The notes under the pieces: model-generated | What the model saw: the letters and a program-made list of their open reading frames with translations, nothing else | What the model was told of the DNA's origin: nothing | Databases searched by the model: none | Made by a program: the position numbers and the translations under genes | Source: Ignavibacteriales bacterium | GTDB lineage: Bacteria > Desulfobacterota_D > UBA1144 > Nemesobacterales > CSP1-2 | Direction of reading: 5' to 3' | Length of the DNA stretch: 35,641 bases | Assembly: GCA_050259195.1 (NCBI GenBank) | Contig: JBLNAE010000090.1 | Location: forward strand, 1 to 35,641 | Shown: positions 937 to 32,539 of the stretch, in pieces | Position numbering within the stretch: position 1 is the first letter of the stretch | How the letters are laid out: each line of letters opens with the position of its first letter

Positions 937-1809
937 ATGCCAAAAGACATAGTGGACATAGAGGCTACCTTAAAGCTAGAGGGGCTCTCTTTTCGTATTT
1001 CGCCCCGCGTAAGGGGTCTAAGGACGGGTATTCATAAAAGTTTCCACAAAGGCATAAGCCCGGACTTTATGGAATACAAAGAATATTCCCAGGGTGACGA
1101 ACTCAGGCACATTGACTGGAGGCTTTACGGTAGACTCGATCGACTGTATGTAAAGAAATTCGAAGACGAGGTGAATCTAAACTGGTGCATACTAATTGAC
1201 AAGAGTGGCTCTATGGGCTACGCATCAGAAGAAACCTCAAAATTCGATTATGCCATAAGGCTCTCAGCAACCCTTGCATACCTGCTTCTTAAACAAGGAG
1301 ATGGCGTAGGGGTAACAGATTTTTCCGATAGAGGCGTAGATGTAATCTTGCCGCGATCAGGAACCACAAACCTCACTCCTATAGTGGAAAAACTCAAATC
1401 CCTCAGTCCCGGCGGAAAGGGTGCGCTCAAAGAGGCAGTGTTAAAGACAATAGAGAGAATTAAGATTGATTCAGTTTTCGTCTTGGTCTCTGACTTTCTT
1501 ATGGATTTTGAACCGATAGAAGAATCCATTAAACTCATTCGAGCGGCAGGAAAGGAGGTGATTGTTATCCACGTGCTCGATCCGGATGAAATTGATTTTA
1601 ACTTTGACGGATCAATCGAGTTTGAGGATATGGAAGAAGACATAAAGGTTCTTGTCGATGCTGGAGGTTTCAGAAATATCTACAGGAAAAGAGTAGGAGA
1701 GTTTATTCAAAAATTAAAATTTATATGCCACAAGAACAGATCAAGATATGTGCTTTCTCCGTCAAACACGTCCATCGAAGATGTGCTTATCCAAATTTCA
1801 AATAAATAG
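937..1809 (+). CDS. DUF58 domain protein (vWA-like, usual partner of MoxR-type ATPases)
   Basis: GIHKSFHKGISPDFMEYKEYSQGDELRHIDWR is the DUF58 signature. It is followed by the MIDAS-like LIDKSGSMGY. Confidence 0.85.
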   Translation: MPKDIVDIEATLKLEGLSFRISPRVRGLRTGIHKSFHKGISPDFMEYKEYSQGDELRHIDWRLYGRLDRLYVKKFEDEVNLNWCILIDKSGSMGYASEETSKFDYAIRLSATLAYLLLKQGDGVGVTDFSDRGVDVILPRSGTTNLTPIVEKLKSLSPGGKGALKEAVLKTIERIKIDSVFVLVSDFLMDFEPIEESIKLIRAAGKEVIVIHVLDPDEIDFNFDGSIEFEDMEEDIKVLVDAGGFRNIYRKRVGEFIQKLKFICHKNRSRYVLSPSNTSIEDVLIQISNK

Positions 1810-1817
1810 GAAAAAAG

Positions 1818-3770
1818 TTGAACTTCTCTTTTTTAAATCCATTCTTCTTAATTGGTCTTAGCGTAGTTACCTTTCCCATTCTCATACATCTGATATCCAA
1901 AAAAAGGGGGATCAAAAAGAGTTTCCCAGCCGTACGTTTTCTCATAGCTTCCCAAGGAGAAATCGCAAAAAGATCAAAATTAAAGGACCTAATTCTACTT
2001 CTTCTTAGAGCTTCGATCTTAATCCTTTTGGTCATTGTATTTTCAAAACCTGCTGTTTTTTCCTTTTCTCCCACGGGTGCGCAAGATGCGAGGTCTGTTG
2101 CAATTGTAGTTGATAACTCATTCAGCATGGGATACAAAGATAGTTTTAAAAAGACCAAAAACAGCGTGGAAAAACTCATCCAATCGCTTCCGGACGGAAG
2201 TTTCGCAGCCATTTTTCCTCTTATCCCGAATGAGAACACCAGACCCCAAGTCACACAAGATAGAGGAAAAATGGCAGAGGATTTAAAAAATCTGGAATTA
2301 TCATATGCCTTTGCAAATAACGAAAGAAAGCTCGAAGAGATATTCGGTTCACTTGAGAACGCACCCAATCAAAAGAAAGAACTCATATTCTTTACCGACT
2401 TCCAGAGAAACGGCTGGACAAGAGACGATTTCAGAAGAGAATGGTTTCTGCCGATTGATGTAAGTCCGACTTCGGAGATGGAAAACCGCGCTGTATCAGG
2501 CGTAGATTTTAAAGAGGAAGGGGATTCAATAAGAATTTCCGTTAAGATATTCAACTATTCAAAAAATCCTGTAAAGGACCTGCTCGTTACCGTGTTTCTT
2601 GGCAGTAATCAAATAAAGGGCTTCGTGGATGTGGAAGGAAAGAGCGAATGGATAAAGGATTTCGTCCTTTCTAAAGGTAGTATTCCTCAAGGTGAAATGT
2701 CCGGTAGGGTTGAAATCTCTCATGACAATCTTACGGCGGATGACATCCGATACTTTGCCCTCTCTCAAAATGGAGAGTCGCGGATTCTCATGGTTGACGG
2801 AGACCCTAGAGAGAATGCAAGACTTAGCGAGACTTACTATCTTGCGCGCGCCGTTGAAACGATTAGCGAGATACTACCACTCCGCATATCTACAAAAGAC
2901 AACGAATCGTTTCTTAACGAGGAGTTAAAAAACTACAACATAATTTTTTTGGCAAACGTTGGAGATGTAACTCCGCAAAAAGCCAATGAGATAGAGGAAT
3001 TTCTAAAAAACGGCGGAGCAGTTGTAATACTTCTCGGAGATCGAGTAAGAAGCGACGTATATAATGCGCTTTTCAAGGATGTTCTTCCCGCAGAGGTTGG
3101 AAGCTTATCGGAGGGCGATTACTCTCTCGGCGCTCGCAAGCCCGATGAATTCACAGAAGAAATTGATGAAAAATTCAGCCAAGTAAAAGTAAAAGAATTA
3201 TTTAGCCTCCGTCCAGCTAAAGACTCCTCTACGATTTTAGACGCTTCAAATAATTTTCCGTTTCTCATTCACAGAAAAGCAGGAAGAGGAAACATATTTC
3301 TATTTGCCTCAACAGCAGATACGGCTTGGAACAATTTTTCACTCACTCCGGTTTTCCTTCCAACTATAAAGAAAATATTCGACCTCTCATCTGCCGAGTC
3401 TCAGAGAAGAAATTTCCTTGTTGGTGAACCTGTCGACGTTAGTTTTCCAGAAGGAGTGGATGAAATAGAGATAGAGAATCCCCGGAGGGAAGAAATAAAA
3501 GTATATCGAGAGAGCCCCCGATTCACCAAAACTCTCATCCCCGGAATCTATACCGTGAAATTGGGTGAAGGAATAGGCTACAAATTCTGCGTAAACGTTG
3601 ACACTAGAGAATCAAACCTTGAGAAGATTTCACTAAAGGCCGCTTCTTCTCAGTCCACTGGGCAAAACGGATTGACCAAAGTCTTCAAAGAGATAGGGAG
3701 TTACTTTCTCTTTGGAGTTATCGCTCTTTTTATATCCGAATCGGTTCTCAGAGTCTTATATATGAGGTAG
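1818..3770 (+). CDS. BatA-N-terminal (double-TM) / vWA-like membrane protein with C-terminal TM anchor
   Basis: TTG start 9 nt after the DUF58 stop. MNFSFLNPFFLIGLSVVTFPILIHLISKKR is the aerotolerance-regulator BatA N-terminal motif. A DxSxS-like VAIVVDNSFSMGY follows, then a ThuA/GATase1-like YNIIFLANVGD...GGAVVILLGD segment and a hydrophobic C-terminal helix. Confidence 0.8.
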   Translation: MNFSFLNPFFLIGLSVVTFPILIHLISKKRGIKKSFPAVRFLIASQGEIAKRSKLKDLILLLLRASILILLVIVFSKPAVFSFSPTGAQDARSVAIVVDNSFSMGYKDSFKKTKNSVEKLIQSLPDGSFAAIFPLIPNENTRPQVTQDRGKMAEDLKNLELSYAFANNERKLEEIFGSLENAPNQKKELIFFTDFQRNGWTRDDFRREWFLPIDVSPTSEMENRAVSGVDFKEEGDSIRISVKIFNYSKNPVKDLLVTVFLGSNQIKGFVDVEGKSEWIKDFVLSKGSIPQGEMSGRVEISHDNLTADDIRYFALSQNGESRILMVDGDPRENARLSETYYLARAVETISEILPLRISTKDNESFLNEELKNYNIIFLANVGDVTPQKANEIEEFLKNGGAVVILLGDRVRSDVYNALFKDVLPAEVGSLSEGDYSLGARKPDEFTEEIDEKFSQVKVKELFSLRPAKDSSTILDASNNFPFLIHRKAGRGNIFLFASTADTAWNNFSLTPVFLPTIKKIFDLSSAESQRRNFLVGEPVDVSFPEGVDEIEIENPRREEIKVYRESPRFTKTLIPGIYTVKLGEGIGYKFCVNVDTRESNLEKISLKAASSQSTGQNGLTKVFKEIGSYFLFGVIALFISESVLRVLYMR

Positions 3771-13416: not shown

Positions 13417-14481
13417 TTATCCACTCAATCTAATGTTCCGAACTTCGTCGAGGAGTATTTTCATGCACTCCTGAGCCAATTGAGCCGAGGTAAAAAGTTG
13501 CTTCTCTCCATTCGATTGTCGCCACCCAAGCTCACCAGCAGCATCACGATCAAAGTCGAATTCAAATTTTTTTAACAATTGGGGCTGTCTAAACCGAATT
13601 TCACCTTTGCGAAATAATGAGTTGTCCAAAAGTATTATAAAGAGACGAGAGTATTTTAACGTGTTCGTATATCGCAACCCCCAAAATACGCTCAGACTGA
13701 GTCCTCGGGTAGACAATACTAACTTTATATCGTTTCGTTCTTTGCCAAAAGTTAACTCTTCATTATTAGCAGAAATCTTATCACAACACCTTTCTAGCTC
13801 ATCCAGCAACTTAGCGAGTTCGACATTTGCCGCCTGGACACCTTCAGTGGAGTCCAAAAATCTCTTGCGATCCTCCTGTACACGAATCTGATGAGCTATC
13901 TCCAGAACAGTTTCCTCATGCGGAGTTCCCCCAGCTTGCTGGACTCGTGTCTCTTTGAACTTAAGAGGTGGCATTGGCCTTAATTTGCCAAACTCAGGCT
14001 TCAGGATACGAGGTTGATTGGTAAGGCGGCGATAAAGGTTTTCATAGCCCTCTTCGGTCTCTTCGGTATCGAGCTTGTAGTATGTCACACTGCGAAGCAC
14101 AACAGGAATGTGAGCCAAATCTTGGGAAGAGAACAGCACAGGTATAAACTTGATGTTGTTGGCTTCGGCCTCGTAGAGTCCTTGGGTGATTATCGCCCCT
14201 TCCCATTTTGCACCCAAGCCTTTTCCAATTTCTTCCTCACCTTCAAATCGTCGCTCATATTTCTCGGTACACACTATGAGAACAAAGTCAGCCTCCTTAA
14301 TTTGTTTTCTCGTCCACTGCGGCCATCCCTCCCGTGGTGACTCTTCATACTGGTCTATATAGCAATCTATCCCATCGATACGCAGGCGGTTAGAAAGATT
14401 CAGTACGTGATCTTTGTGCTCAGGTGAATCATGGCTGTAGCTGATGAAGACCTTGGGATGTTTAGATTCGGTAGGTGTCAT
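13417..14481 (-). CDS. TIR/SEFIR-like domain protein with an unrecognised C-terminal domain
   Basis: The N-terminus KVFISYSHDSPEHKDHVLNLSNRLRIDGIDCYIDQY...WPQW...ADFVLIVCTEKY...GLGAKWEG matches the bacterial TIR/SEFIR-like pattern. Residues from about 175 to 354 (a coiled-coil stretch, then a beta-rich region) match nothing I recognise. Confidence 0.7.
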   Translation of the reverse strand: MTPTESKHPKVFISYSHDSPEHKDHVLNLSNRLRIDGIDCYIDQYEESPREGWPQWTRKQIKEADFVLIVCTEKYERRFEGEEEIGKGLGAKWEGAIITQGLYEAEANNIKFIPVLFSSQDLAHIPVVLRSVTYYKLDTEETEEGYENLYRRLTNQPRILKPEFGKLRPMPPLKFKETRVQQAGGTPHEETVLEIAHQIRVQEDRKRFLDSTEGVQAANVELAKLLDELERCCDKISANNEELTFGKERNDIKLVLSTRGLSLSVFWGLRYTNTLKYSRLFIILLDNSLFRKGEIRFRQPQLLKKFEFDFDRDAAGELGWRQSNGEKQLFTSAQLAQECMKILLDEVRNIRLSG

Positions 14482-14604: not shown

Positions 14605-15003
14605 TTATCCAAATACTCCGATGTGATCCGGGGCGATTTTGACAATAACGCGCTGCTCTCCCGGCCCACGGTAGGGATATCTGTCAACCCCCAAATACTT
14701 CTTCGCAAGCCGATCTATATGGGTGTCCGCGCCGTTATGAGTCATCTCAACAACATGCCCACGAATCATCACCTGCTCGTAGGGATTTTCAGAATTTATA
14801 ACAGTTACCGCAACCCTGGGATCCCTGCGAAGATTTTTTGCTTTGGCCCGCCCCTCAGCAGTGTTAAAAATGACGTGTTCGCCGTCTGAATCTATCCAAA
14901 CAATGCTGACCTGTGGCGAACCATCCGGCATAAGGGTTGCAACCGCAGCAAAGTTTCTACCTTCAGTAATTAGCTTATGAGCAAGTTCTGGTAATTTCGA
15001 CAT
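14605..15003 (-). CDS. Pyridoxamine 5'-phosphate oxidase (PPOX) family flavin/deazaflavin-binding protein, Rv1155-like class
   Basis: 132 aa with AAVATLMPDGSPQVSIVW...VIFNTAEGRAKAKNLRRDPRVAVTV, the typical split-barrel PPOX-class pattern. An AAGGAGA RBS precedes the start. Confidence 0.75.
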   Translation of the reverse strand: MSKLPELAHKLITEGRNFAAVATLMPDGSPQVSIVWIDSDGEHVIFNTAEGRAKAKNLRRDPRVAVTVINSENPYEQVMIRGHVVEMTHNGADTHIDRLAKKYLGVDRYPYRGPGEQRVIVKIAPDHIGVFG

Positions 15004-15165: not shown

Positions 15166-16317
15166 CTAACTCGGCTCTTCTTTTCCGGAAAGAAGTCTGT
15201 TCAGGATTTCTTTTTGTATGTCCTCAATTTCGGTTTTTACCCTTGAGAGTTCTTCAAGAGATTTTCCACGCTCTCTACATTCATCAAACAGGGCGTCAAC
15301 CTTTGAAAGCACGTGTCTTAATTTTGTCTGAGCCTCTATGTTCGCTTTAATGAGCATCTCCTCATTATCCCAGGGACGCTTTGCGTATGATTCAAGCTCC
15401 TTTGCCTGAACGAGCAATTCACGCGCGCGGTCTCTATAGCCGTGCAGTGACTGATAGATTATAGACTGAATCTCCCCTCTTTCACCCGGATCTCGCCAGA
15501 GGACATTTTCGAGAATGCTTAAATCGTTTTCATCAACCTCGCCTCTTCCATCAAGATATGCTCTCGCTTTAAGAAGGAGAACCGATTGTTTATAGCGCCT
15601 GTCCGAAAGGACAACTCCCTTCTTTTTGAGTTCATTTCTTATGCGGGAGATGAGCTTTATTATATGAGGCGGAATGCGAACGCCCTTCGTTTGAGATTGA
15701 CAGTGCTTGAGCTCCTCAACGGTTATAACGGTCTTTTTTCTCTCAACCTCGTCGGACTGTATCATTTTTATGAATCGAAAATCCTCTTTTATGTAATCCA
15801 CAACGTATCTGAGCAGAAACCTGTCATATAGAGCTTCAAGTTCATCTTCTTCCGATGGAAGCTCGTTGCTTGCTCCAAAGAGCGTAACAAGAGGAACCTC
15901 AGTCGCTTCCGTGCCATTGTAGAAAACTCTCTCATTCATAATTGTAAGAAGGGTGTTGAGTATTGAAGAACTCGCTTTAAATATTTCATCGAGAAAGGCA
16001 ATATAGGCTTCGGGCAATTTTCCGTTTACTACTCTTCTATATTCATCGTTCTCTAACCCCTTTAGACTCACGGCACCGAAGATCTCTTCAGGCGTGGTGA
16101 ATTTTGTAAGGAGCCACTGAAAGTATTTTGCTCCGGAGACCCTTTTACAGACCTCATGCGCAAGGAGCGATTTTGCCGTTCCCGGAGGACCGATAAGGAG
16201 TATGTGACAACCGCATAGGAGGGCGCAAAGAGTTCCCTCTACAACCTCGTCTCTTTCAAAAAACTCCCCCTTTAATTCTTCCTTTATCTTTTTTAAATTC
16301 TCTATTGCTCTTTCCAT
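15166..16317 (-). CDS. RavA/MoxR-like AAA+ ATPase with a coiled-coil C-terminus
   Basis: Walker A LLIGPPGTAKS, then FTTPEEIFG, Walker B AFLDEIFKASSSILNTLLTIMNER, and LFGASNELP...LEALYDRFLLR. These line up closely with my recollection of E. coli RavA. The ATG lies 16 nt inside the 3' end of gspK. Confidence 0.8.
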   Translation of the reverse strand: MERAIENLKKIKEELKGEFFERDEVVEGTLCALLCGCHILLIGPPGTAKSLLAHEVCKRVSGAKYFQWLLTKFTTPEEIFGAVSLKGLENDEYRRVVNGKLPEAYIAFLDEIFKASSSILNTLLTIMNERVFYNGTEATEVPLVTLFGASNELPSEEDELEALYDRFLLRYVVDYIKEDFRFIKMIQSDEVERKKTVITVEELKHCQSQTKGVRIPPHIIKLISRIRNELKKKGVVLSDRRYKQSVLLLKARAYLDGRGEVDENDLSILENVLWRDPGERGEIQSIIYQSLHGYRDRARELLVQAKELESYAKRPWDNEEMLIKANIEAQTKLRHVLSKVDALFDECRERGKSLEELSRVKTEIEDIQKEILNRLLSGKEEPS

Positions 16318-17402
16318 GAGATAATATTTACTCCCTGTGAATTTTGAGAAGTACTTTTTCTTACAACCGCTCTAATGACCCTGGCTATGGAATTTCCTCG
16401 TCCCAGGCTACCCGTAGATGTTATAGAAAACACGTCGCTTTTGCCCGTGGTTAGAACAACGCCACTTAAGCCAGCGCTGATTGGAATTGACGGATCGACA
16501 TTCTCCTTCTGCACTATTTCGCGCACCCTTCTTTGATCAATCACGGAGTTGTCTTTTCTCGCATCTATCACAGCATTGGCAATACTTTCCGCGGTATCAT
16601 CTCTTAGATCTTCTTGAGAGGCACTTCCTTGTCTTGGAAAAGCCGAAACCGATGCGCCCTCTAGCGCAGCCATCATCACGACCTTGGGAGCGGTGCTGAA
16701 ATTTATCTTTTTGTCCGTTGGATAAACCGTAACGTAGTCTTTAATTTTATTGAAGAAATCATCATCCATTCCGCTTATCATTCGAATTTCTTCAACGCTG
16801 TCCAGCGGCCCATCTTTTATCTGATAAGGATTTTGCAGCTTTGCATAGAACTCAGCATTTGCTCCGTTTGGGTCTTGGTCATTATTTTGCTGCCCCGATA
16901 TTGGATGGTCGAGCCAATTGATCAGGCTTGAGATAAAACGCGAGGATTTACCATTATCCACTCCCACCTTTCTGAAAAGCTCGGTAATCTCTTTGAGGAC
17001 CTGTTGGTCAACCTGATTCGTGATCTGGTTTACAATGGCATTGAGATTTACCTTTGATCGCTCATCAACAACCACAACGGATGCAACTCCGTCTCCAACT
17101 GGGAGAGAGGGAATCGTAATATCCCAGTACCCTTGGGAATTTCCGCTTTGGTCGCCGAGCAGACCCGAAATTGACGTTAGACTCTCAGGAGACTCATTCC
17201 TTATCGTTCCCGCAATTATGTATACACCTGACTTTGCAATGTATTGCGATTTCATAGCATCTCTTGAATTGGCCGATATTTCCGTATTTATTTGCGTGAA
17301 ATAGATGAGATCAACGACAAGAGTCGTAAGGATTGCGACGACAATAAGCACGATAATGAGCACAACGCCACTTTCGGATTTTCTTTTGAAGTTATTGTTC
17401 AT
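16302..17402 (-). CDS. gspK: Type II secretion system minor pseudopilin GspK
   Basis: N-terminal hydrophobic helix SGVVLIIVLIVVAILTTLV without the Glu5 pattern, plus size and position after gspJ. NLN...DQ-type GspK core motifs are present. Confidence 0.8.
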   Translation of the reverse strand: MNNNFKRKSESGVVLIIVLIVVAILTTLVVDLIYFTQINTEISANSRDAMKSQYIAKSGVYIIAGTIRNESPESLTSISGLLGDQSGNSQGYWDITIPSLPVGDGVASVVVVDERSKVNLNAIVNQITNQVDQQVLKEITELFRKVGVDNGKSSRFISSLINWLDHPISGQQNNDQDPNGANAEFYAKLQNPYQIKDGPLDSVEEIRMISGMDDDFFNKIKDYVTVYPTDKKINFSTAPKVVMMAALEGASVSAFPRQGSASQEDLRDDTAESIANAVIDARKDNSVIDQRRVREIVQKENVDPSIPISAGLSGVVLTTGKSDVFSITSTGSLGRGNSIARVIRAVVRKSTSQNSQGVNIISWKEQ

Positions 17403-17466: not shown

Positions 17467-18225
17467 TTAATCCGCTATAGGAATTAATACAATAGAGTTA
17501 AACTCAAAGTCCTCTCCCTTGGCGCTTCTTAAGGTTAATGTTATGTCAACGGCTCTTGGAAGAGAGGATGTTTGCGCCGAATCCCAGTCATTGATGAATT
17601 CATCTCCATCAGTCTTCATATATGTAAGGGTAAATCCCACCACGCGCTCAGAAAGCGGGTATTCAATCGCGCTGGAGTCGCTCCCAACCCTTGGGTTTTC
17701 CCTTCTCATAAGAAAAAAGAGATCGCTCTGGGGAACCGGCTTCAAGTAATATGTGATCTCGGCTTGGTCTGAGTCCCCTGAGTTTATTCCTCCCGCGTGG
17801 GATAGAGACGTAAAGTCAACTGAACTACGCCCACCCTGTTGCTCCGCCTTTCCAACAAAAAAAGAGGATGCGGAAGCACCCTGAACCGGATAAATCATGC
17901 CCCTCGGATATGCCATTGATAAGTCTTCGGTCATCTTGGATATGATAACTCTCGCCTCATGATAAAGTTCAAGCTTGTCTTCGGCGGAATCCTTTGCGTT
18001 TACGATTTGGAAGAAAGAGGCATAGAGGACGGTTAAAACTATTGCCCCGATAAAAATGGCAAGGAGCACCTCAAGCAGTGTGAATCCTCCGGATCCGCAA
18101 TATTCCTGTCTCTGATTCAGTCGGTGAGATCGGGAATCCAGAGGGACGAAAGGGACGAATAGGAGCTTTCGGCTGATCTCGACCGTGAGGCTTGCGGTTG
18201 ATGGCATCCGATTGCTCTTGTTCAT
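17467..18225 (-). CDS. gspJ: Type II secretion system minor pseudopilin GspJ (start uncertain)
   Basis: Prepilin-type motif GGFTLLEVLLAIFIGAIVL. The track start at 18303 would overlap gspI by 53 nt. The first ATG after the gspI stop is 18225, which still leaves about 47 aa before the G|F cleavage motif. Confidence 0.75.
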   Translation of the reverse strand: MNKSNRMPSTASLTVEISRKLLFVPFVPLDSRSHRLNQRQEYCGSGGFTLLEVLLAIFIGAIVLTVLYASFFQIVNAKDSAEDKLELYHEARVIISKMTEDLSMAYPRGMIYPVQGASASSFFVGKAEQQGGRSSVDFTSLSHAGGINSGDSDQAEITYYLKPVPQSDLFFLMRRENPRVGSDSSAIEYPLSERVVGFTLTYMKTDGDEFINDWDSAQTSSLPRAVDITLTLRSAKGEDFEFNSIVLIPIAD

Positions 18226-18250
18226 CGCAATCACGGTTTTTAGAGAACCA

Positions 18251-18613
18251 CTACTTGAGGTTAGCCATCGCCAATGTGAGTTCAAACTCTTTTCTCCCTT
18301 CATCCCAGGTAATGAGTAAACGAACCGTTCTTATTTCCGTGTTGAGTCCCGGAACAGTTGCAGGCACTATGGAGAGAAACCATCTAAATCCAGGAGCCTC
18401 CGTGAAATCCCCCTGCTCCTGTCTCGGGTCCGGGAATCCCTCAAGCTCGATCTCCGCGAGTTTCCTTTGTGCTAGGGTCTCAGCAACAACAAGGTCTTTT
18501 GACCGAGAAGTAAGGATTAAATTTCTATTTACAGACCCCAAAAGCACGGCAAGTGCAGAGCCGAGTATTGCAACAGCAACGAGAACCTCAAGGAGAAGAA
18601 ACCCAGAATCCAT
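18251..18613 (-). CDS. gspI: Type II secretion system minor pseudopilin GspI
   Basis: MDSGFLLLEVLVAVAILGSAL prepilin motif. The ATG at 18613 gives a canonical short leader and removes the overlap with gspH; the track start was 18673. Confidence 0.75.
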   Translation of the reverse strand: MDSGFLLLEVLVAVAILGSALAVLLGSVNRNLILTSRSKDLVVAETLAQRKLAEIELEGFPDPRQEQGDFTEAPGFRWFLSIVPATVPGLNTEIRTVRLLITWDEGRKEFELTLAMANLK

Positions 18614-18644
18614 TGTAGAGAGGCAAAATTTTGCGTCTCTACTC

Positions 18645-19157
18645 TTATTTCTGAAAAAGGTCAACATACTCATCGAGAACTATGGTTCCCCCGGTATAGG
18701 GCTTTGTAGCTATTGTATAATCAACGCCTCCTTCGGTCTCCAGGTGAATCACGGCAGGCTCAACGAATCCGGTCGGCATAAACAGTATGAATTCTCCGCT
18801 TCCCTTTACACTCTTTCCAGGGCTTCGCTGAGTCATTATATCCTTAAAATAAACTCCATCAGGAAGCTTCTTTATCCCCAAAAGAGGGTCATCTGTAGGT
18901 GCCTTAAACTCATTTCCATCGAGAACCTGTATCCAGTATTCACCCCTATCAATATCAAATGCGAGCTTATAGACGGTTTTCTTAAAAATGGCCTCGCTGT
19001 AGAGATACATTATTGTTCCACTTAGTCTCCGTGATGCGCTTTTAATATTTACCTCAGTGATACTCTCAAACTTGGGTATGGCTACTAATAAGAAAGCACC
19101 TACCAGAACAATCACTACGGCAAGCTCTATAAGCGTAAACCCCTTTTTATCTTTCAT
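18645..19157 (-). CDS. gspH: Type II secretion system minor pseudopilin GspH
   Basis: MKDKKGFTLIELAVVIVLVG prepilin motif; 170 aa; 4-nt overlap with the gspG stop. Confidence 0.75.
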   Translation of the reverse strand: MKDKKGFTLIELAVVIVLVGAFLLVAIPKFESITEVNIKSASRRLSGTIMYLYSEAIFKKTVYKLAFDIDRGEYWIQVLDGNEFKAPTDDPLLGIKKLPDGVYFKDIMTQRSPGKSVKGSGEFILFMPTGFVEPAVIHLETEGGVDYTIATKPYTGGTIVLDEYVDLFQK

Positions 19158-19585
19158 TGAATGTTCCGACTCGATATATCGTCATCGCTCGGATAAACAC
19201 CATCGGGTCCGGGCGATATAATTTCATAAGAGCCGTCCTGGGTTTGATCGGGACCTATGTACTTAAACTCATTCCCCCACTGATCCTTAGGGACTTGGGG
19301 CTTATCAAGGTATCCTTCTCTCGCGTAGTTCTGGGGAATCCGTCCGACGGTTGGAGGGGCAGTCAAAGCTTCAAGCCCCTGTTGAGTTTCGGGATAAAAG
19401 CCATTATCAAGTTTAAACTGTTGTAGCCCACTCTCAAGGTTTTTGATCTGAATCTTTGTAGTCTCAACTCTTGCTTTTCCAAGCCTGCCTATAACATTCG
19501 TGCTCACTACATATGCAAGCCCAGCAATGATGACCAGAACCACCATGATTTCAATAAGCGTAAAACCGCCTTCTTGTGACCTCAT
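19154..19585 (-). CDS. gspG: Type II secretion system major pseudopilin GspG
   Basis: MRSQEGGFTLIEIMVVLVIIAGL, then KARVETTKIQIKNLESGLQQFKLDNGFYP and a C-terminal PGPDG...DDDISS calcium-site-like motif. Confidence 0.88.
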   Translation of the reverse strand: MRSQEGGFTLIEIMVVLVIIAGLAYVVSTNVIGRLGKARVETTKIQIKNLESGLQQFKLDNGFYPETQQGLEALTAPPTVGRIPQNYAREGYLDKPQVPKDQWGNEFKYIGPDQTQDGSYEIISPGPDGVYPSDDDISSRNIQ

Positions 19586-19595
19586 TTAAAACCTC

Positions 19596-20804
19596 CTATC
19601 TGCCAATAGTAGATGTTAAATCAAATATAGGAAGAAGAATTGCAAAAACTATAAACCCGATAACCACACCGATTGCCAGTATCATAACAGGCTCAAGCAG
19701 AGACGTAAGCGTAGAGACCGAAGTTTCGATCTGAAGGTCATATATATTTGCAATCTTTGAGAGCATCTCCTCCATCTCTCCAGTCTGCTCCCCCACGGTT
19801 ATCATTCGTGTCATAAGCGGCGGGAACACACCGCTTTCTCTCAAAGGCCCCGCAAGACTCGTTCCCTCCCTTACGTTTTCACGAACCTTTTTTAGGGTTT
19901 CGACGTAGACTGCATTTCCTAAGACCGCCTCTCCAATTTCGAGCGCATCGAGAAGCGGGATTCCACTGCCAAGAAGGGTCCCGAGCGTGCGCGTGAATCT
20001 CGATATTATGACCATTTTTATAATTTTCCCAAATATTGGGAGCCTAAGAATCAAACGATCGAATAATGCACTCCCGCGTTCAGTTTTGGTGAAGCGGTAG
20101 GCAATAAAAATCAAACCGACAAATAAAAGAAAAAGAGCGACGAGGTTGTGGCTTAGAAAATCACTAAACTTTATAAGCACTATTGTGATAAGCGGCAGGG
20201 CTTTTCGGCTTTCCTCAAATATTTTTGCTATCTTAGGGATAATGTATGTCATCATAAAAAAGAGAACACCGCTCCCTATAAAGAACATAAATATCGGATA
20301 AATAAGCGCGCTCCTTATACGTGATCGAAGAGCCATCTGTTTTTCAAGAAAATCCGCAAGTCTAAGGAGTACAATATCGAGTGTGCCGCTTGCCTCGCCC
20401 GCTTTTACGATGTTTATATAAAGATTAGAAAATGCGTTTGGATGCTCTCTGAGTGCGCCAGCTAAAGAACTGCCTTCGCTCACTCTGTCTCTTACATGAG
20501 TGAGCACCTGGCTGAGTTTTGCATCTTCCGTCTGTTCAGAGAGCGCAACAAGAGACGCTTCAAGCGGAAACCCTGCAGAAATAAGGGTAGAAAATTGCCT
20601 TGTCGTCACTACAAGCTCTCCCGCGTTTATACCTTTAAATAGAAAAAACTTTCTTGCCTTCTCCTTTTTAACCTCACCGAGAGAAGAGAGAAACATACTC
20701 TGACGCTTCAGCTTCTCAGTTGCGGCCTTAGGGGATTCGGCGTCTATCGTCCCCTGTACCGTCTTTCCCCTTTCGTTAATCGCTTTGTATTTATAAACAG
20801 GCAT
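19596..20804 (-). CDS. gspF: Type II secretion system inner-membrane platform protein GspF
   Basis: 402 aa with two GspF repeats (TRQFSTLISAGFPLEASL and TRTLGTLLGSGIPLLDAL) and three TM segments. Confidence 0.9.
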   Translation of the reverse strand: MPVYKYKAINERGKTVQGTIDAESPKAATEKLKRQSMFLSSLGEVKKEKARKFFLFKGINAGELVVTTRQFSTLISAGFPLEASLVALSEQTEDAKLSQVLTHVRDRVSEGSSLAGALREHPNAFSNLYINIVKAGEASGTLDIVLLRLADFLEKQMALRSRIRSALIYPIFMFFIGSGVLFFMMTYIIPKIAKIFEESRKALPLITIVLIKFSDFLSHNLVALFLLFVGLIFIAYRFTKTERGSALFDRLILRLPIFGKIIKMVIISRFTRTLGTLLGSGIPLLDALEIGEAVLGNAVYVETLKKVRENVREGTSLAGPLRESGVFPPLMTRMITVGEQTGEMEEMLSKIANIYDLQIETSVSTLTSLLEPVMILAIGVVIGFIVFAILLPIFDLTSTIGR

Positions 20805-20880: not shown

Positions 20881-22560
20881 TCACATCTCGTCCTCTTCCG
20901 TAACACGCATGACCTCGTCTATTGAAGTCAAGCCCTTAAGAACCTTTTCCGCACCGTCCATCCTCAGCGTGGACATTCCATGTTCAATCGCCTTTTTCTT
21001 TATCGTCGTAGAGTCCACAGCACTCAGCGTAAGACCTCGAATTTCGTCATCAATAATAAGGGTTTCAAATATCCCGCTTCTTCCGCTGTAACCCATATTA
21101 AGACACTCGCTGCAGCCCTTCGCCCGATACAGCCTCCCTCCTGGAAGTTCACCTCTATCAATATCTATTTTTTTCAGCTCATCCTCAAGGGGCGTATAAA
21201 GCTCCTTGCATGAGCGGCAGAGAAACCGAATGAGTCTCTGCGCCACGACAGCGATAAGAGAGGATGCTACAAGGAAAGGCTCGATTCCCATATCCACAAG
21301 CCTCGTTATTGCGCTTGCGGAGTCGTTTGTATGGAGTGTAGAAAAAACAAGGTGTCCCGTAAGCGATGCGTGGATCGCGATGTCCGCAGTTTCCCTGTCT
21401 CTGATTTCACCTACTAAGATCACATCTGGATCTTGACGCAGAACCGATCTCAGGCCGTTTGCAAACGTGAGGTTCACTTTTGAGTTTACCTGAATCTGGT
21501 TTATTCCCTGGATCTGGTACTCAATCGGGTCTTCAATCGTGATGATCTTTTTATCGGGAGAATTAATCCTCTCAAGGGCAGCATAAAGAGTAGTCGTTTT
21601 TCCGCTTCCCGTAGGGCCTGTGACAAGAATGATTCCATGCGGGCGATGAATAAGAGAATTTACCGTATCGAGTTTTTTACCCTCAAACCCCAGCTCTTCC
21701 AACTCAAGGAGAACCGTAGAGCGGTCGAGGAGTCTCATTACGACGCTCTCCCCGTGAGATGTGGGAACGGCAGATATACGGACGTCAACGTCGCGTCCTG
21801 CGATCTTTACCCTTATCCTTCCATCCTGGGGCTTTCTCTTCTCCGCAATATCAAGCTCAGCCATAATCTTTACCCTTGATATAATGGATGACTGAAGTCT
21901 CTTTGGAACCGCCGTTATTTTATGGAGGATCCCATCTTTTCTAAATCTCACAACGACATCTTTTTCAAAGCACTCTACGTGAATGTCGCTTGCCTTCTCC
22001 TTTACCGCCTGAAAAAGGAGCGAGTTTACAAACCTAATTATCGGCGCCTCGTCTTCTGCTTCAAGAAGGTCTTTAGGTTCCTGAAACTCGGACTCTGTAA
22101 TTCCCATCGTTCCATTTTCAATCCCATCCCTCATCTCCGTACCCCGCTCATAGACCCTGTTTATGCAGTCTATAACTACAGGACCGAGCGCAAGAAACGG
22201 CTCTACTTCACATCCAAAAAGCGACCTTACCTCATCAAGCGCATATAGGTCGAGAGGTGGGGCAAAAACCACTATGACCTTTCCGTCTCCCCTCTTTAAG
22301 GGAATCAGCTTGAACTTTTTTGCAAAGCTGATGGGAATGAGCTTTATAAGCTCCGAGTCAATCTCTCTCTCAGATATGGCGCTTATATGGGGAATTCCAT
22401 AGAACTCTGAAAGGACCTCCAGGGCTTCATCATCGTCCAAGATCTTTGATTTCAAAAACGCTTCTTCAAACTTTTCGCCGTTTTTATTATTGATTAGATC
22501 GTCAATCTTCCCCTGCGCCGCAGGGTTTCTCTCACTTATTATTTCCTCAAGCCTCTTCAC
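20881..22560 (-). CDS. gspE: Type II secretion system ATPase GspE
   Basis: Walker A VTGPTGSGKTTT, Asp/His boxes, and the tetracysteine CRSCK...CSEC. The track start (TTG at 22581) has no properly spaced SD. The GTG at 22560 sits 7 nt after AGGGGG and is preferred; the start remains uncertain. Confidence 0.9.
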   Translation of the reverse strand: MKRLEEIISERNPAAQGKIDDLINNKNGEKFEEAFLKSKILDDDEALEVLSEFYGIPHISAISEREIDSELIKLIPISFAKKFKLIPLKRGDGKVIVVFAPPLDLYALDEVRSLFGCEVEPFLALGPVVIDCINRVYERGTEMRDGIENGTMGITESEFQEPKDLLEAEDEAPIIRFVNSLLFQAVKEKASDIHVECFEKDVVVRFRKDGILHKITAVPKRLQSSIISRVKIMAELDIAEKRKPQDGRIRVKIAGRDVDVRISAVPTSHGESVVMRLLDRSTVLLELEELGFEGKKLDTVNSLIHRPHGIILVTGPTGSGKTTTLYAALERINSPDKKIITIEDPIEYQIQGINQIQVNSKVNLTFANGLRSVLRQDPDVILVGEIRDRETADIAIHASLTGHLVFSTLHTNDSASAITRLVDMGIEPFLVASSLIAVVAQRLIRFLCRSCKELYTPLEDELKKIDIDRGELPGGRLYRAKGCSECLNMGYSGRSGIFETLIIDDEIRGLTLSAVDSTTIKKKAIEHGMSTLRMDGAEKVLKGLTSIDEVMRVTEEDEM

Positions 22561-22629
22561 ATCAGTACCCCCTTTTTTCAAACCCCTTTTGCTGAAGGGA
22601 CATATTTCGCTTTAAAAGAAAATATTGAG

Positions 22630-25353
22630 TCATTGGAGTATCATGGGTTTCTCATAGCCCCTTTGCTGAAGGCGCATGTTTTGCTTCTGTCTTTCTTCAA
22701 GGATTTTCTGCATATCGGCTTCATCTTTAACTATCTTTGGTGAAAGAACAATCATAAGATTTACCTTTTGGCTCTGTGTCGTTTTAAACTTAAAAAGATA
22801 GCCAAGAATCGGAATATCGCCAAGGAGCGGAACCTTGCTTACGCTGACAGTTTCTCTATCCGAAACGAGCCCCCCAATTACGATTGTTTGGCCATCTTTT
22901 ACAACCACTGACGAATCGGCGCTTCTCGTGTTCGTTGCAATACCTAATTGCTGAGTGTTGAGACCGGCAGGTGCTGTCGTCGTATTAGAAACCTCTATGT
23001 GTATGTTTAAACTCAAGTAGTCGCCTTCGCCAATCTGAGGAACAATGTCAAGCAGTATACCGACGGGTTCACGGTCTATCGTCTGTACAGTAACGCCGCT
23101 TTGTGCGACGGTGCTTCCAGTAGGAAAGGGAATCACATCGGCTACGGTAATTTGTGCCTCCTGATTATCCCTTGTAAGAAGGCTGGGAGTAGAGAGAACG
23201 TTAGCATCGTTCAGAGAAGAAAGGGCTTGAACAAGGGCAGAATAGGCTGGAATTTGAACGCCATTAATATTGACCGTTTTACCAACAACCCCCAGGAATA
23301 ACCCAGATACGCCTCCAAGCGAAGTTGCCAAAGTCTGAGGGCTTGCCGCAACACCAAAAAGGCTCGGCAGCCCTGGAAGATTAGTTCCGACAAAGCCGCC
23401 CCCGTTATCAAATGTAAAACCGAGGCTAAAGCTTGTCCCAAGCGCTCTTAGATTGTTAAGACTCACTTCGAGTATCGCAGCCTCAACATACACCTGTTTT
23501 CTTCTTATATCCAGCTCATCAACAACCTTTTTTACAGTTTCATAATCCCTGCGCGAGCCTACAATTATAATGGAATTCGTAGCAGGGTCGGCTGTGATTC
23601 TTATACCCTCTGCGGCAACCGCCGAAATTCCGCCCCCGCTAGGATATTCCCTTTGAATTTGTCCTCCCACCGATTGTCCAACACCGCCAAGGGTCCCGGT
23701 TTGCCCACCTGGCAATAGAGTCCCCGTCTGCCCACCTTGGTATTGGCCTCCGAAGGTCCCCCCTCCCAATCCTCCTAGCCCACCCAATCCAGTGGTTCTT
23801 CCTCCTATTCCTCTACGTGTGGGCTGCGTGGGTGCCACAGCCCCGCCTCCTCCAGAGATTAAACTAGAGAGAACTCCAACCACCTCTGTAGCGTCTGCGT
23901 TTTGAAGGCGGATTACATAGATTCCCTGCTCCGGCTGCTCTATCTCAACGTCGAGCTTTTCAATCACCGCTTTAATCTTGGACATATCCTGAGGACGGGC
24001 AATTATTATGAGCGAATTAGTCCTTTCATCCGTGATTATTTTAAGCCCTAAAGCTCCCTGCTCTCCCCTAGCCGCTCCTGAAGTGGCACGGGTTGGAACA
24101 CGCGCAGGACGCCTTTGAACTTGCGGCTGAAACACGCCCGGCTGAGCAGGGGTTTCAACGCTTGGAGCCACACTCTCTCCACCAAAGATGTCCGTAAGCG
24201 TCGCGGCAACATCTGCAGCGTCAGCGTGTTTAATCTTTACGAACTCAATTCCGGTTTCCGCATCAATATTCCCAATGATTTTGAGGATTCTGTTAAGATT
24301 CGACGCCGTATCTATTATAATGAGCGTATTTGAAGACGGGTAAGCTATGACATCTCCCTCTTTCGAGACAATTGGCTTTAGCGCATTTGCAATCTCTACA
24401 GCGTTTATATTCTTAAGTGGAACGAGTCTTGTAACGAACTTATCTGAGGGAGAGCCGTATTCAAGCCCGATACCCGTAGGGAGGCTTTCAGTTTTTATCT
24501 CCCTCTTGGGGATTATCTTGCTTATGCTATCCTTTTTTACTATCGCAAATCCGTTTAAGTCCAAGATCGCCTCAAAGAGCCTGAGAGCGTTTTGTTTCTT
24601 AAACCCCTCCCTAGGCGTCACGATTGTTACCCTCTTGCCCTTTACCGATTCATCCAAAATGAACGTCTGCCCGGTGATTTCACTCATCGTCTGAATCAAG
24701 TCCCTTATGTCCATCTCATTCTGAAGGTTTATTATCTCTTCTTGAGGGGCAGTTGCCTGCGCCGCCTTGGGTTGATTTATCTGGGATTGCAGGAATTCTT
24801 CCTGAGACCTTACTCGTCTCCTTTGTGTAAAGGCCCTTTCTTGAGGAATCTCTAAAACCTGTCCTACGGTTACTCCGTCACTTTTAAGGCCGTTGGCATT
24901 TCTTAGTTCTTCGACTGAGACATGGAACCTTCTTGCTATACCAGATAATGTGTCTCCCTCTTTAACCGTGTAACTCGTCTTTTCCGCAGCGGGGAATTTC
25001 GTCTCTTGTTTCTCGGTACCGATATTTGGCGGTTGAGGAGAAACCTCTTTAGAAACCCCCGGAATCGGAGCCACAGTTTCTTCTTGTTCGACCTCTTCGT
25101 TTGTTTGGACCCCTTCTTTGTTGTTCTGAGCTATTGTACGCTGGCTTATTTCTCCGGTGAATGTTTTATCCAATTTTGTTGCCCTTTGTCCTTTCTTTTG
25201 AACCTGACAACGAGAGCAAAGTATCAAGGGGTTATTACTATGGTATCTGTTATATACATCGTCTTGGCGCGGCTGGGAAGAAACCCAATCGCGATATCCG
25301 TCTAAAGCCAAAATAAGCACAGAGATCAAAAAAGGCTGAAGGGCTTTTTTCAT
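22630..25353 (-). CDS. gspD: Type II secretion system secretin GspD with an N-terminal LysM domain and a Gly-rich insert
   Basis: Signal peptide, then Lys[30 protein letters not shown]...GQVLEIP (nt 24844-24972). N0-N3 repeats follow, then a roughly 75-aa G/Q/T-rich tract (nt 23629-23856). The secretin core is [14 protein letters not shown]...[14 protein letters not shown]. Confidence 0.9.
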
Positions 25354-25497: not shown

Positions 25498-26466
25498 TTA
25501 TCTGACCGTGTATTGATACGTCAGATCCTGCCCCCCTCTCGTAATATCTATACTGAAGCGGGACTGCTCTCTTAGCTCCTGAAAAACAGCGAAGGCGTTT
25601 TCAATGTTATCAAGCTCTACATCATTTATCCTGTGCACCACGTCCCCATTTCTAATTCCTATTCTAGAGAAAATGCTATTTGGTCTTACGGCAAAGAACC
25701 TCAGCCCGTCTTCCTGCGGAATGGCGCGGGCTTGGGTTAAAAGTTGGTTCGGATCACTCAGAGCATCATTCAGCATCTTTTGATCAATTTCATAAATCCC
25801 TTCAGCCACCTCCCTTATGCCCTCGCTCCCAATTTGCGGCGTGCCCGAATTCTGTGCAGAAATATTTTCTTTCCCACCCCGCGGACCCCTTCCCAATGAC
25901 GCAGAACCCCGACCCCACTGAGGCGAAGAGGCAGTGGAAGAGAAAACATTGCCCATATTTTTACACTTTATTGTCTCAGGCCCGTCAGAGCGCTCAACTA
26001 TGGCAATACAGTTTTCAACCTTCCCAAGCTTTACACTCTCAGATGTGATTATATCAATTACCTCTCCTGGAGAGTAGCCACGAACCTTGCCATTATCAAG
26101 GTTTTTAATAACAGCAGTAGATTTTTCCCCTGCATTAAGAACGGTTCCAAGAAGTTCAAGGTTAAGCGTAGTCTGAGGAACGCTGTTTGGAATCAGGTCA
26201 CCTGAACCCAAAGACGTATTTCTTAAACCAAATATATTTCTCTTTAATATAACGTTATAAGAATCATGGGAATATAATTGATTCGGTTTACTATTTACAT
26301 TTACATCTTCGAATATGGCACCTGAAGGAGGGCGAGCCTGGACCGACGGGGGAGACACCTTTTCTCTAATCCTATCGCTTACAATCTGAGCAATAGAGTA
26401 AGAAAGCCCTGCAAGAAGTATGAGATTTATGACCCAGATGTATTTTTTCAGAAGCGATACAATCAT
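25498..26466 (-). CDS. gspC: Type II secretion system protein GspC (TM-HR-PDZ)
   Basis: N-terminal TM helix and an HR-like segment (STAVIKNLDNGKVRGYSPGEVI...). The C-terminal PDZ is GLRFFAVRPNSIFSRIGIRNGDVVHRINDVELDN. It sits directly upstream of gspD. Confidence 0.75.
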   Translation of the reverse strand: MIVSLLKKYIWVINLILLAGLSYSIAQIVSDRIREKVSPPSVQARPPSGAIFEDVNVNSKPNQLYSHDSYNVILKRNIFGLRNTSLGSGDLIPNSVPQTTLNLELLGTVLNAGEKSTAVIKNLDNGKVRGYSPGEVIDIITSESVKLGKVENCIAIVERSDGPETIKCKNMGNVFSSTASSPQWGRGSASLGRGPRGGKENISAQNSGTPQIGSEGIREVAEGIYEIDQKMLNDALSDPNQLLTQARAIPQEDGLRFFAVRPNSIFSRIGIRNGDVVHRINDVELDNIENAFAVFQELREQSRFSIDITRGGQDLTYQYTVR

Positions 26467-30743: not shown

Positions 30744-31448
30744 TCAAAATGCCCCCCCTATGGGCATAATAACTATCTCTTCGGTTAAGGTCTCTTTTGG
30801 TTGTTTATAAATATTCACAACGGCTCTTGCAACGTCTTCGGGTTTCATCATCCTTGTCCTGTCCCAATTTCCCGGAATCTCTTTCCAGAGAGGCGTGTCC
30901 GTGGGCCCGGGAATTATAGCGGTGACCTTTATTCCCATCCCCCTGAGTTCCTCTCTTAGAGAATTCGTAAAGCCAAGAAGCCCGGATTTTGAGGCGCAGT
31001 ACGCAGACCAGTTGGGAAATCCCGCTTTAGAGGCAATAGAGACTATGTTGAATATGTGGTCTCCTTCTCTCATGAATCCAAGAGCATATTTTGTCATAAG
31101 AAAAGCCCCGGTCAAATTTACCCTAATCGTCTGCTCCCATCTAGATAAATCAAGGCGAGAAACAGATTCTACAAAAGCGACTCCCGCATTATTAACGAGG
31201 ACGTTTATGCCACCGCTAATCTGGGAAACCTCATTTATAAACCTTTCAACCTCCTCTTCAATCCCGATATCGCACACGATGGCTAAGGCTTCTCCCCCTC
31301 TTTCTTTTATCTCTCTTTCAACTGCCTTTATACTATCGAGCGTTCTTGCACAAATTGCAACCGCCGCTCCTCCTTTAGCAAATTCAAAGGCTATTTCTCT
31401 TCCTATTCCTTTTCCCGCCCCAGTAACAACCACGACCTCTCCATTCAT
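30744..31448 (-). CDS. Short-chain dehydrogenase/reductase; sepiapterin-reductase-like by context
   Basis: [12 protein letters not shown] Rossmann motif, NNAG, and the catalytic S...YCASK. A 4-nt overlap (ATGA) with the folE stop. Confidence 0.85.
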
Positions 31449-31999
31449 TTGTGATTTCCTATAAAGCTCAGGAACTCCATTCTCGTTCTTTCATCCTCCT
31501 TAAAACCCCCATGCATGGCACTTGTTATCATCTTGGCTTCTGCCTTTTTAATCCCCCTCATAGCCATACAGAGATGGTATCCCTCTGCAACAACTGCCAC
31601 TCCGTCTGGTTTTAGAACCTCGTTGAGCAAATCCGCAATCTCTATTGTCATTCTCTCCTGAACCTGAAGCCTTCGGGAGAACATCTCGACGATTCTCGGA
31701 ATCTTGCTGAGTCCAATTATCTTTCCGTTTGGAATATAGGCCACATGACACGTACCAAAAAATGGGAGCAGATGATGTTCACAGAGGCTGTAAAATTCTA
31801 TATCCCTTACAACCACCATCTCGTCGTATTTTATATCAAATATTGCACCGTTAATTATCTCATGTGGCGATACCCTGTATCCCGCAGTCAATTCTCTATA
31901 CATCCTGGAGATTCTATCAGGGGTGTCTTGAAGCCCCTGGCGCTCAGGGTCCTCTCCAATCTCAAGAAGAATCTCCCTTACTGCTTTCTCAATGCTCAT
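31445..31999 (-). CDS. folE: GTP cyclohydrolase I
   Basis: [34 protein letters not shown] and QVQERMT are hallmark FolE type-1 motifs. Confidence 0.92.
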
Positions 32000-32066
32000 G
32001 CTGTCGTCTTTCCTCCTAAAGAACTATTTAACTTTGGTCACAAATGAATACGGATATAAAATGATG

Positions 32067-32098
32067 CAAGATGCATGATTCATGATGCATCTTGTTTT
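32067..32098. other. Perfect 10-bp hairpin in the 114-nt PTPS-folE intercistronic spacer
   Basis: caagatgcat-gattcatg-atgcatcttg, followed by tttt on the plus strand. On the coding (minus) strand only a weak U-rich tract follows. Confidence 0.45.
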
Positions 32099-32113
32099 GC
32101 GGCAATTTGTGGC

Positions 32114-32539
32114 TCAATTGTTATCCTCGAAATATTCGAAGTAATTATCCGGTGTCTCCCAGAGCTTCAGGTGAAGAAGTCTGCCCTTGTCCATCTTAGG
32201 CTGGAGTTTTATCCATATATACCTTACTATGTTTTCCCCGGAAGGAGTAAATTCTCTGAAATATGGAATCTCAACGTCTAACCTCGTGTGATCGAGTTCA
32301 TCTATAATGCCCTTCATCACCTCGTCCAGATCGCCGAGATTTATTATCATTCCTGTATCCTGATGAATATCCCCCGTTACCTTAACCTCAACATAGTAGT
32401 CGTGTCCGTGCCCTTTAGGATTGTTGCATTTTCCGAATATCCGGCGATTTTCTTCATCAGAATACTTCTTTGCATTGAGCCTGTGGGCGGCGGAAAAATG
32501 ATAAATCTTCGTTAGAGCGCATACCTCTTTTCCCATCAC
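32114..32539 (-). CDS. 6-pyruvoyl-tetrahydropterin synthase, eukaryote-like type (paralogue B)
   Basis: FSAAHRL...DEENRRIFGKCNNPKGHGHDY...DTGMIINLGDL...LDH...GENI, very close to the animal PTPS pattern FGKCNNPNGHGHNY. Confidence 0.85.
   Translation of the reverse strand: MMGKEVCALTKIYHFSAAHRLNAKKYSDEENRRIFGKCNNPKGHGHDYYVEVKVTGDIHQDTGMIINLGDLDEVMKGIIDELDHTRLDVEIPYFREFTPSGENIVRYIWIKLQPKMDKGRLLHLKLWETPDNYFEYFEDNN

Follow-up and report, generated by a model that had tools for sequence, protein, structure and literature searches.

A RavA-like MoxR ATPase gene that overlaps gspK is the conserved last gene of type II secretion operons in Dadabacteria-type genomes

Why would a type II secretion system (T2SS) operon end in a gene for a MoxR-family AAA+ ATPase? 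The question arises from a contig of an Ignavibacteriales bacterium (JBLNAE010000090.1, assembly GCA_050259195.1), the whole of which, 35,641 nucleotides, we call the window. Nine co-directional genes form an operon in the order gspC-D-E-F-G-H-I-J-K, all of them upstream of the gene for a RavA-like ATPase (Table 1), and the ATG of this gene lies 16 nt inside gspK, whose stop codon is the TAG at 16304-16302. A preliminary description of the locus had reported this overlap and had placed the ATPase gene last in the operon. Both statements hold: on public contigs of the same strain, gspK and the ATPase gene are predicted identically by an independent gene caller, overlap included (in the gene caller's version, gspK has 353 amino acids and starts at 17363), and the same junction occurs in 40 genomes. 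This clade-wide position suggests, but does not prove, that the ATPase serves the T2SS. That it is a lineage-specific accessory chaperone dedicated to the T2SS is the reading we prefer, and we would give it roughly an even chance.

Scanning genomes with the ATPase protein returned 38 loci, 35 of which are from Candidatus Dadabacteria or from unplaced "Thermodesulfobacteriota/Deltaproteobacteria" metagenome-assembled genomes (MAGs); the NCBI taxonomy places Dadabacteria as a class within Thermodesulfobacteriota. In all loci with upstream DNA, the gspC-K order is complete and the ATPase gene comes directly after gspK. The 16-nt overlap has the motif NTGGAAAGANNNNTAG (pattern NTG GAA AGA NNN NTA G) in 33 of 33 loci, in one further locus (L036), and in six genomes from a scan with GspF, or 40 species-representative genomes altogether. 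The preliminary description had allowed for a one-off juxtaposition and proposed a gene-neighborhood test of the linkage to gspK; its recurrence in 40 Dadabacteria-type genomes settles that point. The product is 383 ± 1 amino acids long, and its gene reads through in 39 of the 40 genomes. The remaining one is L036 (10001-11151; L135 is the same contig), in which the T2SS-linked MoxR gene is frameshifted near codon 103, either by an assembly error or because it is a pseudogene.

This conservation spans considerable divergence: within the clade, identity to the window's ATPase drops to 58% and that of GspK to about 50%. Synonymous sites in the ATPase gene are saturated, and the ratio of nonsynonymous to synonymous substitution rates is 0.04-0.06 for the whole gene and 0.02-0.08 for the C-terminal element, so the gene is under purifying selection. 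The DNA 3' of the ATPase gene varies. A convergent Zn-dependent dehydrogenase (Zn-ADH) is the commonest neighbor; others are SPFH genes, integrase fragments, a SPOR protein, and an isochorismatase, and the window and its two closest relatives have a PNPOx/F420 oxidoreductase. Since the downstream flank is not conserved, the ATPase gene is the conserved 3' end of the operon and not a member of a neighboring unit.

What is missing from these loci is also consistent. The preliminary description saw no ViaA or other vWA partner beside the ATPase gene, and we found none adjoining it among the window's open reading frames (ORFs) of at least 100 amino acids, nor a vWA gene after the ATPase gene at any of about 40 clade loci. 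The same set of window ORFs contains no gspL, gspM, gspN, or gspO. Across some 40 genomes, the operon and the roughly 10 kb flanking it on each side encode neither ViaA nor GspL/M. Among the scanned loci, there is no Dadabacteria-type copy of the ATPase away from the T2SS operon. In a scan for Dadabacteria copies of ViaA, the best 80 of 381 matches were all Binatia-like (at least 41% identity).

The geometry of the junction suggests that translation of the ATPase gene is coupled to that of gspK. No Shine-Dalgarno sequence lies consistently across loci 5-10 nt before the ATPase start, which fits an ATPase whose translation depends on translation of gspK. The two genes are probably also co-transcribed: promoter and terminator scans, and RNA folding of the 3' intergenic region, gave signals at the background level.

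What kind of ATPase is it? The RavA motifs quoted in the preliminary description are all present, and they match E. coli RavA column for column: GPPGTAKS (residues 43-50), TTPEEIFG (74-81), FLDEIFKA..LNTLLT..NER (108-130), and ASNELP..LEALYDRF (149-167). Walker A, Walker B, N151, R166 (of "DRF"), and SDRR (238-241), the last being the sensor-2 region inside the AAA_lid_8 lid, are invariant in homologues down to 35% identity. Pfam finds bpMoxR (PF20030, 6e-58, residues 7-180), AAA_5 (5e-29), and AAA_lid_8 (218-287). When compared to PDB sequences with phmmer, the ATPase has E. coli RavA as its sole strong match (3.8e-60; residues 6-294 align with RavA 9-305), and a 25-sequence ATPase profile, compared with RavA by hhalign, matches it over 288 columns (E = 3e-49, 40% identity). 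Foldseek, given an AlphaFold2 model of the ATPase, ranks RavA first, with an alignment that covers the whole chain at a TM-score of 0.42 on a poor core model. The sole strong NCBIfam match is likewise RavA, but at 240.5 bits, against a cut-off of 681. Pfam scans for the LARA domain (PF20265) and for RavA_C (PF12592) are negative for the ATPase and positive for E. coli RavA (1e-39 for LARA), in agreement with the earlier statement that a LARA-type C-terminus is lacking. Thus, the earlier assignment to RavA stands for the AAA+ module and the lid and fails at the level of orthology. Because of the NCBIfam score and the lack of LARA, RavA_C, and an adjacent ViaA, the protein is not a RavA orthologue; we classify it as a RavA-clade MoxR AAA+ ATPase without LARA that, by its motifs, should be catalytically intact.

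In the Pfam scan, no family is assigned to residues 290-383. There, the AlphaFold2 model has three long helices (277-313, 319-349, and 355-376) at confident local scores (pLDDT, the predicted local distance difference test, of about 90). The model was built from a shallow alignment of 25 sequences, all at least 69% identical, and has a mean pLDDT of 67; residues 68-192 of the core are below 50 and unreliable, and the usable parts are the lid and the C-terminus. The three helices may correspond to the triple-helical domain of RavA minus the LARA insertion, and hhalign shows no sequence match between the two. The preliminary description had proposed a coiled coil in place of LARA. The C-terminus is indeed helical in the model, but it is not a T2SS-specific substitute: a helical C-terminus is common to ViaA-linked relatives from Myxococcota and Bacillota, which rules out an add-on specific to the T2SS. 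The identity of this element is 66% within the T2SS-linked clade, 43% among ViaA-linked relatives, and 34% between the two groups. Residues specific to the T2SS-linked clade include K324, N326, Q330, and K352.

The ATPase has neither a transmembrane segment nor a signal peptide; the highest 19-residue hydropathy, 1.95, belongs to the beta1 strand before Walker A. We take the protein to be soluble and cytoplasmic, and presumably a hexamer. The preliminary description suggested an assembly chaperone for the secretin or pseudopilus. Without a signal peptide or a transmembrane segment, direct action on the secretin or on an assembled periplasmic pseudopilus is topologically unlikely, and we do not favor that idea. 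Rather, a cytoplasmic ATPase would be expected to find its T2SS client, if it has one, in the cytoplasm or at the inner face of the membrane.

Where did the gene come from? An alignment-based MoxR scan returned at least 79 outgroup loci at 36-57% identity to the window's ATPase, which, among the matches listed, are from Binatia, Myxococcota, Bacillota, Streptomyces, Chloroflexota, Gammaproteobacteria, and archaea. About 60 of the 79 listed loci have a ViaA-type vWA gene directly downstream, with a product of about 510 amino acids, and hhalign relates this partner family to E. coli ViaA (99.6% probability, E = 5.5e-25). In none of the 79 is the ATPase gene in a T2SS operon. Our neighbor-joining trees, of the ATPase and of GspE+GspF, carry no support values; in the former, the T2SS-linked ATPases form one clade, which is sister to a Binatia/Myxococcota group that is mostly ViaA-linked. 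Because they form one clade, the simplest history would be that a ravA-like gene entered the T2SS operon once, long ago, and that viaA was either lost or relocated.

Two other gene contexts turned up among these relatives. In a Binataceae subgroup (L047-L049, L052-L054, L056, L058-L065, L067, and L078), an orphan ATPase gene has recO after it and CoA-transferase and TldD/PmbA genes before it (for example, L059, 7989-9902), which is a second, independent context without ViaA for the same MoxR subfamily. In a Myxococcales MAG (L077, 1-10639), a RavA-like/ViaA-like pair lies about 2-6 kb downstream of pilT-pilC-pilS-pilR, with a TPR protein between; we treated this linkage to pil genes as chance, as the sister loci L073 and L075 lack it.

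Is the ATPase always present where this T2SS is? The patterns of the GspF scan were highly specific, and few T2SS loci from outgroups came back, L149 being the sole informative one. This locus has a Desulfocapsa-type T2SS (GspF 46% identical) with the canonical gspK-gspL-gspM order, and its GspL and GspM match T2SSL/GspL_C/T2SSM-type families. Because L149 has K-L-M, the ATPase gene can be said to occupy the L/M position. In three loci of related genomes (L145, L146, and L147), the gspC-K operon ends at gspK (at 10349, 14345, and about 14314, respectively). Neither a MoxR gene nor L/M follows gspK there, and no MoxR gene occurs elsewhere in the 17-21 kb of these loci that were read; 3' of gspK are either Rrf2/SufB genes or a convergent ORF and exbB-exbD-tonB. 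Complete Dadabacteria-type chromosomes include MoxR-positive ones (OY729416.1, OZ244197.1, and OZ244991.1) and one that lacks a MoxR gene after gspK (OZ244044.1). In the GspE+GspF tree, the three loci are nested inside the ATPase-positive clade, since L150 and L019 branch earlier, so they look like a secondary loss of the ATPase with retention of the T2SS. They argue against the ATPase as an indispensable component or as a simple substitute for L/M. The suggestion in the preliminary description that the gene takes the gspL/gspM slot is therefore right as to position and goes no further, because these operons lack both L/M and MoxR. T2SSs without recognizable GspL/M have a published precedent in chlamydiae (PMC6668835).

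How might a T2SS-dedicated chaperone of this kind work? In the ancestor of the Dadabacteria-type lineage, a ravA-like gene would have parted from its ViaA-type vWA adaptor and would then have joined the T2SS operon as its last gene, with an overlap into gspK. The ATPase would be made from the T2SS mRNA, and its synthesis would be tied to translation of GspK, the low-abundance tip pseudopilin. A hexamer of the ATPase, probably acting independently of ViaA, would spend ATP on remodeling a cytoplasm-facing part of the T2SS or on helping to assemble it. Within the T2SS, it might act on the GspE hexamer or the GspE N-domain, on the parts of GspF that face the cytoplasm, on the N-terminal tail of GspC, or on pre-pseudopilins whose leader has yet to be cleaved; alternatively, the client could be a secreted cargo that is matured before export. 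The targets of RavA and ViaA in E. coli are membrane complexes, on which the two proteins act at the inner membrane (PMC9489729, PMC3893208, PMC10585395), so an inner-membrane machine is a reasonable class of client, and a T2SS client is what we infer.

Several points weigh against a T2SS-dedicated chaperone. A single origin amounts to one independent observation of the link to the T2SS, and overlapping genes are hard to separate, which inflates the apparent conservation. MoxR ATPases normally need a vWA adaptor, and the operon has none. The ATPase is probably cytoplasmic, and most steps of T2SS assembly take place in the envelope. The Binataceae orphans adjoin recO, so the subfamily can reside beside unrelated genes. 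And the three loci without the ATPase imply that it is dispensable there, at least for keeping the T2SS genes. The main rival, which we consider a serious possibility, albeit somewhat improbable, is that the gene is a hitchhiker in the operon. After a single landing 3' of gspK, vertical inheritance and the gene overlap would have held it in place; its product, a RavA-like ATPase, would have a general role or one in respiratory complexes, as has been proposed for E. coli RavA, with no functional tie to secretion. The single origin in the tree, the secondary loss with the T2SS kept, the orphan relatives beside recO, and the cytoplasmic location all agree with such a hitchhiking gene, and the known RavA clients are Nuo, Frd, and LdcI (PMC3893208, PMC10585395). 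It does not readily explain why the overlap and the protein length have stayed fixed when synonymous sites are saturated and the downstream flank keeps changing, why the adjacent ViaA vanished at the same point as the capture, why no copy outside the T2SS operon was found in the Dadabacteria class among the scanned loci, or why, in the C-terminal element, the T2SS-linked proteins resemble one another more closely (66%) than the ViaA-linked relatives do (43%). A more ambitious version of T2SS service strikes us as improbable. It would make the ATPase an integral, ViaA-independent, cytoplasmic part of a non-canonical T2SS without gspL/M in its operon: a second hexameric motor that docks to GspE/GspF by its three-helix C-terminus and either loads, activates, or resets the platform or else extracts or quality-controls pre-pseudopilins. 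If so, the RavA clade would gain its first structurally defined machine client.

The ATPase could instead act on what is secreted, activating an exoprotein or inserting its cofactor in the cytoplasm before export by the T2SS, and being co-expressed for that reason. The models for such a role are the original MoxR, CoxD, and NorQ. Cytoplasmic location suits a pre-export step, membership in the operon would give co-expression, and MoxR proteins are typically dedicated maturation factors of single enzyme complexes (PMC7159879). But no candidate cargo gene is conserved beside the operon, T2SS cargo usually folds in the periplasm, and there is no vWA adaptor, so we regard cargo maturation as quite unlikely. 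We think even less of the idea that the ATPase replaces GspL/GspM, docking to or activating GspE at the inner-membrane platform of a T2SS that lacks them. It draws on the gene's being in the position of gspL-gspM of the Desulfocapsa-type operon, on the lack of L/M in or near the operon in some 40 genomes, and on a GspE that retains an N-terminal domain of the GspL-binding kind. Yet the Pfam scan shows no homology of the ATPase to T2SSL/GspL_C/T2SSM or to PilM/N/O, the ATPase has no transmembrane segment and GspL and GspM are bitopic, the operons of L145-147 keep gspC-K with neither L/M nor MoxR, and L/M may be encoded elsewhere in the genome. Finally, a component of an NTP-dependent conflict or defense system, either of the bpMoxR-vWA-beta-propeller type or working with the nearby bSEFIR/TIR gene, might be read from the top Pfam match (bpMoxR) and from the bSEFIR/TIR protein encoded two genes downstream in the window. 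E. coli RavA matches PF20030 equally (1.5e-56), so this family does not imply a conflict system; no vWA or beta-propeller gene is adjacent; the bSEFIR gene is absent from all related loci; and the PADLOC match is marginal. With the partner genes absent and the bSEFIR neighbor not conserved, the defense reading is effectively refuted, and we give it next to no weight.

A few other features of the window (Table 1) deserve mention. The GspD secretin has a LysM segment at residues 128-170, ahead of N0, which tblastn detects in many Dadabacteria-type loci and not in L145-147, L142, L144, or L125; it may give, in cis, the peptidoglycan anchoring that GspA/ExeA gives elsewhere. Residues 61-148 of GspE match PF05157 (MshEN/T2SSE_N) and, weakly, N1E. 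In canonical T2SSs, this region of GspE binds GspL. By eye, this domain has no obvious MshEN motif for binding cyclic di-GMP. The bSEFIR gene sits between the PNPOx/F420-type oxidoreductase and priA. It has no tblastn match in any related locus, including the 94%-identical L001 and L002, and looks like a strain-specific insertion of a defense gene into a variable region 3' of the T2SS operon; L004 and L005 have integrase fragments at the equivalent place. At 937-3770 on the forward strand, about 12 kb from the T2SS-linked MoxR gene, are a DUF58 gene and a BatA-N/vWA gene, with carD before them instead of a MoxR gene. In Bat-like operons, genes of these two kinds usually accompany one for an MRP-type MoxR (AAA_3) ATPase. 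Unrelated to the ATPase is a cluster of pterin-type cofactor genes at 31445-32958 on the reverse strand (GTP cyclohydrolase I, then two tandem 6-pyruvoyl-tetrahydropterin synthase paralogues), which adjoins an SDR and a molybdopterin-binding oxidoreductase.

Table 1. Features of the T2SS locus and its 3' flank, in window coordinates
Feature	Coordinates	Strand	Remarks
Bacterial SEFIR/TIR-domain protein (bSEFIR)	13417-14481, with 14605-15003	-	PADLOC bSEFIR 1.5e-62; Pfam SEFIR, TIR_2
RavA-like MoxR-family AAA+ ATPase gene	15166..16317	-	383 aa, ATG start
C-terminal helical element of the ATPase	15169..15447	-	Residues 291-383; no Pfam match
AAA_lid_8 all-alpha lid	15457..15666	-	Residues 218-287; Pfam 1.8e-22
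Walker B FLDE	15985..15996	-	Residues 108-111
Walker A GPPGTAKS	16168..16191	-	Residues 43-50
gspK/moxR overlap, 16 nt	16302..16317	-	gspK end (..W K E x stop) and moxR start (M E R x ..)
gspK, minor pseudopilin	16302..17402	-	T2SSK_1st 8e-19; NF037980 131.6 bits (cut-off 130)
gspJ	17467..18303	-	Pfam and NCBIfam
gspI	18251..18673	-	NCBIfam; gene caller: 120 aa, 18251-18613
gspH	18645..19157	-	Pfam and NCBIfam
gspG, major pseudopilin	19154..19585	-	T2SSG 8e-29
gspF, inner-membrane platform	19596..20804	-	T2SSF 5e-62
gspE, secretion ATPase	20881..22581	-	Pfam; N-domain PF05157 and weak N1E
gspD, secretin with N-terminal LysM	22630..25353	-	Pfam
gspC, delta type, PDZ, first gene of the operon	25498..26466	-	NF041515 161.5 bits (cut-off 150)

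RavA-type MoxR ATPases are widespread, and their real clients and mechanism are unclear even in E. coli. A clade that has no adjacent ViaA and is fixed in one operon points to a specific candidate client, the inner-membrane machinery of the T2SS. The T2SS field gains a candidate accessory ATPase, from a lineage without gspL/M in the operon. The ViaA-linked sister genes, to be compared to the T2SS-linked ones, and the three T2SSs without an ATPase gene after gspK offer natural controls. Because these bacteria are uncultured, the pay-off hinges on heterologous reconstitution.

As stated in the preliminary description, MoxR proteins are not a known part of the T2SS: our full-text search for MoxR together with type II secretion, pseudopilin, or gspK returned no description of a MoxR-T2SS link, and we found no paper that connects MoxR to a bacterial T2SS. 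A guilt-by-association survey of type IV filament systems reported no further systematically associated proteins (PMC6668835), and the T2SS comes up in a genomic study of Dadabacteria solely as a feature of terrestrial clades. Marine clades of Dadabacteria are reported to be without a T2SS (bioRxiv 10.1101/2020.06.22.165886).

Parts of the arrangement do resemble known systems. Like GvpN, CbbQ, NorQ, and CoxD, whose genes lie in the operons of their clients, the window's ATPase is a MoxR-family protein that is genetically tied to one macromolecular assembly; unlike it, most of those use a vWA partner (CbbO, NorD, and CoxE), and none of them is associated with secretion. With E. coli RavA it shares the AAA+ alpha/beta domain, the linker, and AAA_lid_8, over RavA 9-305, with the catalytic motifs kept, and its nearest relatives outside Dadabacteria have a ViaA homologue immediately downstream, as in the RavA-ViaA system. 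It differs in lacking LARA, RavA_C, and an adjacent ViaA, and its gene overlaps a T2SS operon instead of belonging to a ravA-viaA operon. Like GspA/ExeA with GspB/ExeB, it is a lineage-restricted accessory NTPase that is encoded with the T2SS and may aid assembly. ExeA sits in the inner membrane, carries a periplasmic peptidoglycan-binding domain, and acts on secretin assembly. The window's ATPase, in contrast, is predicted to be soluble, belongs to another AAA+ clade, and has no peptidoglycan-binding domain; here, a LysM is on the secretin instead. The nearest published precedent comes from Thaumarchaeota, where a pair of vWA and MoxR/GvpN genes is associated with type IV pilus loci (Makarova et al. 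2016, PMC4858521). That system is archaeal, GvpN-like, and equipped with a vWA partner, whereas ours is bacterial, T2SS-linked, RavA-like, and without vWA; what they have in common is that loci of the type IV filament superfamily contain a conserved MoxR-family gene.

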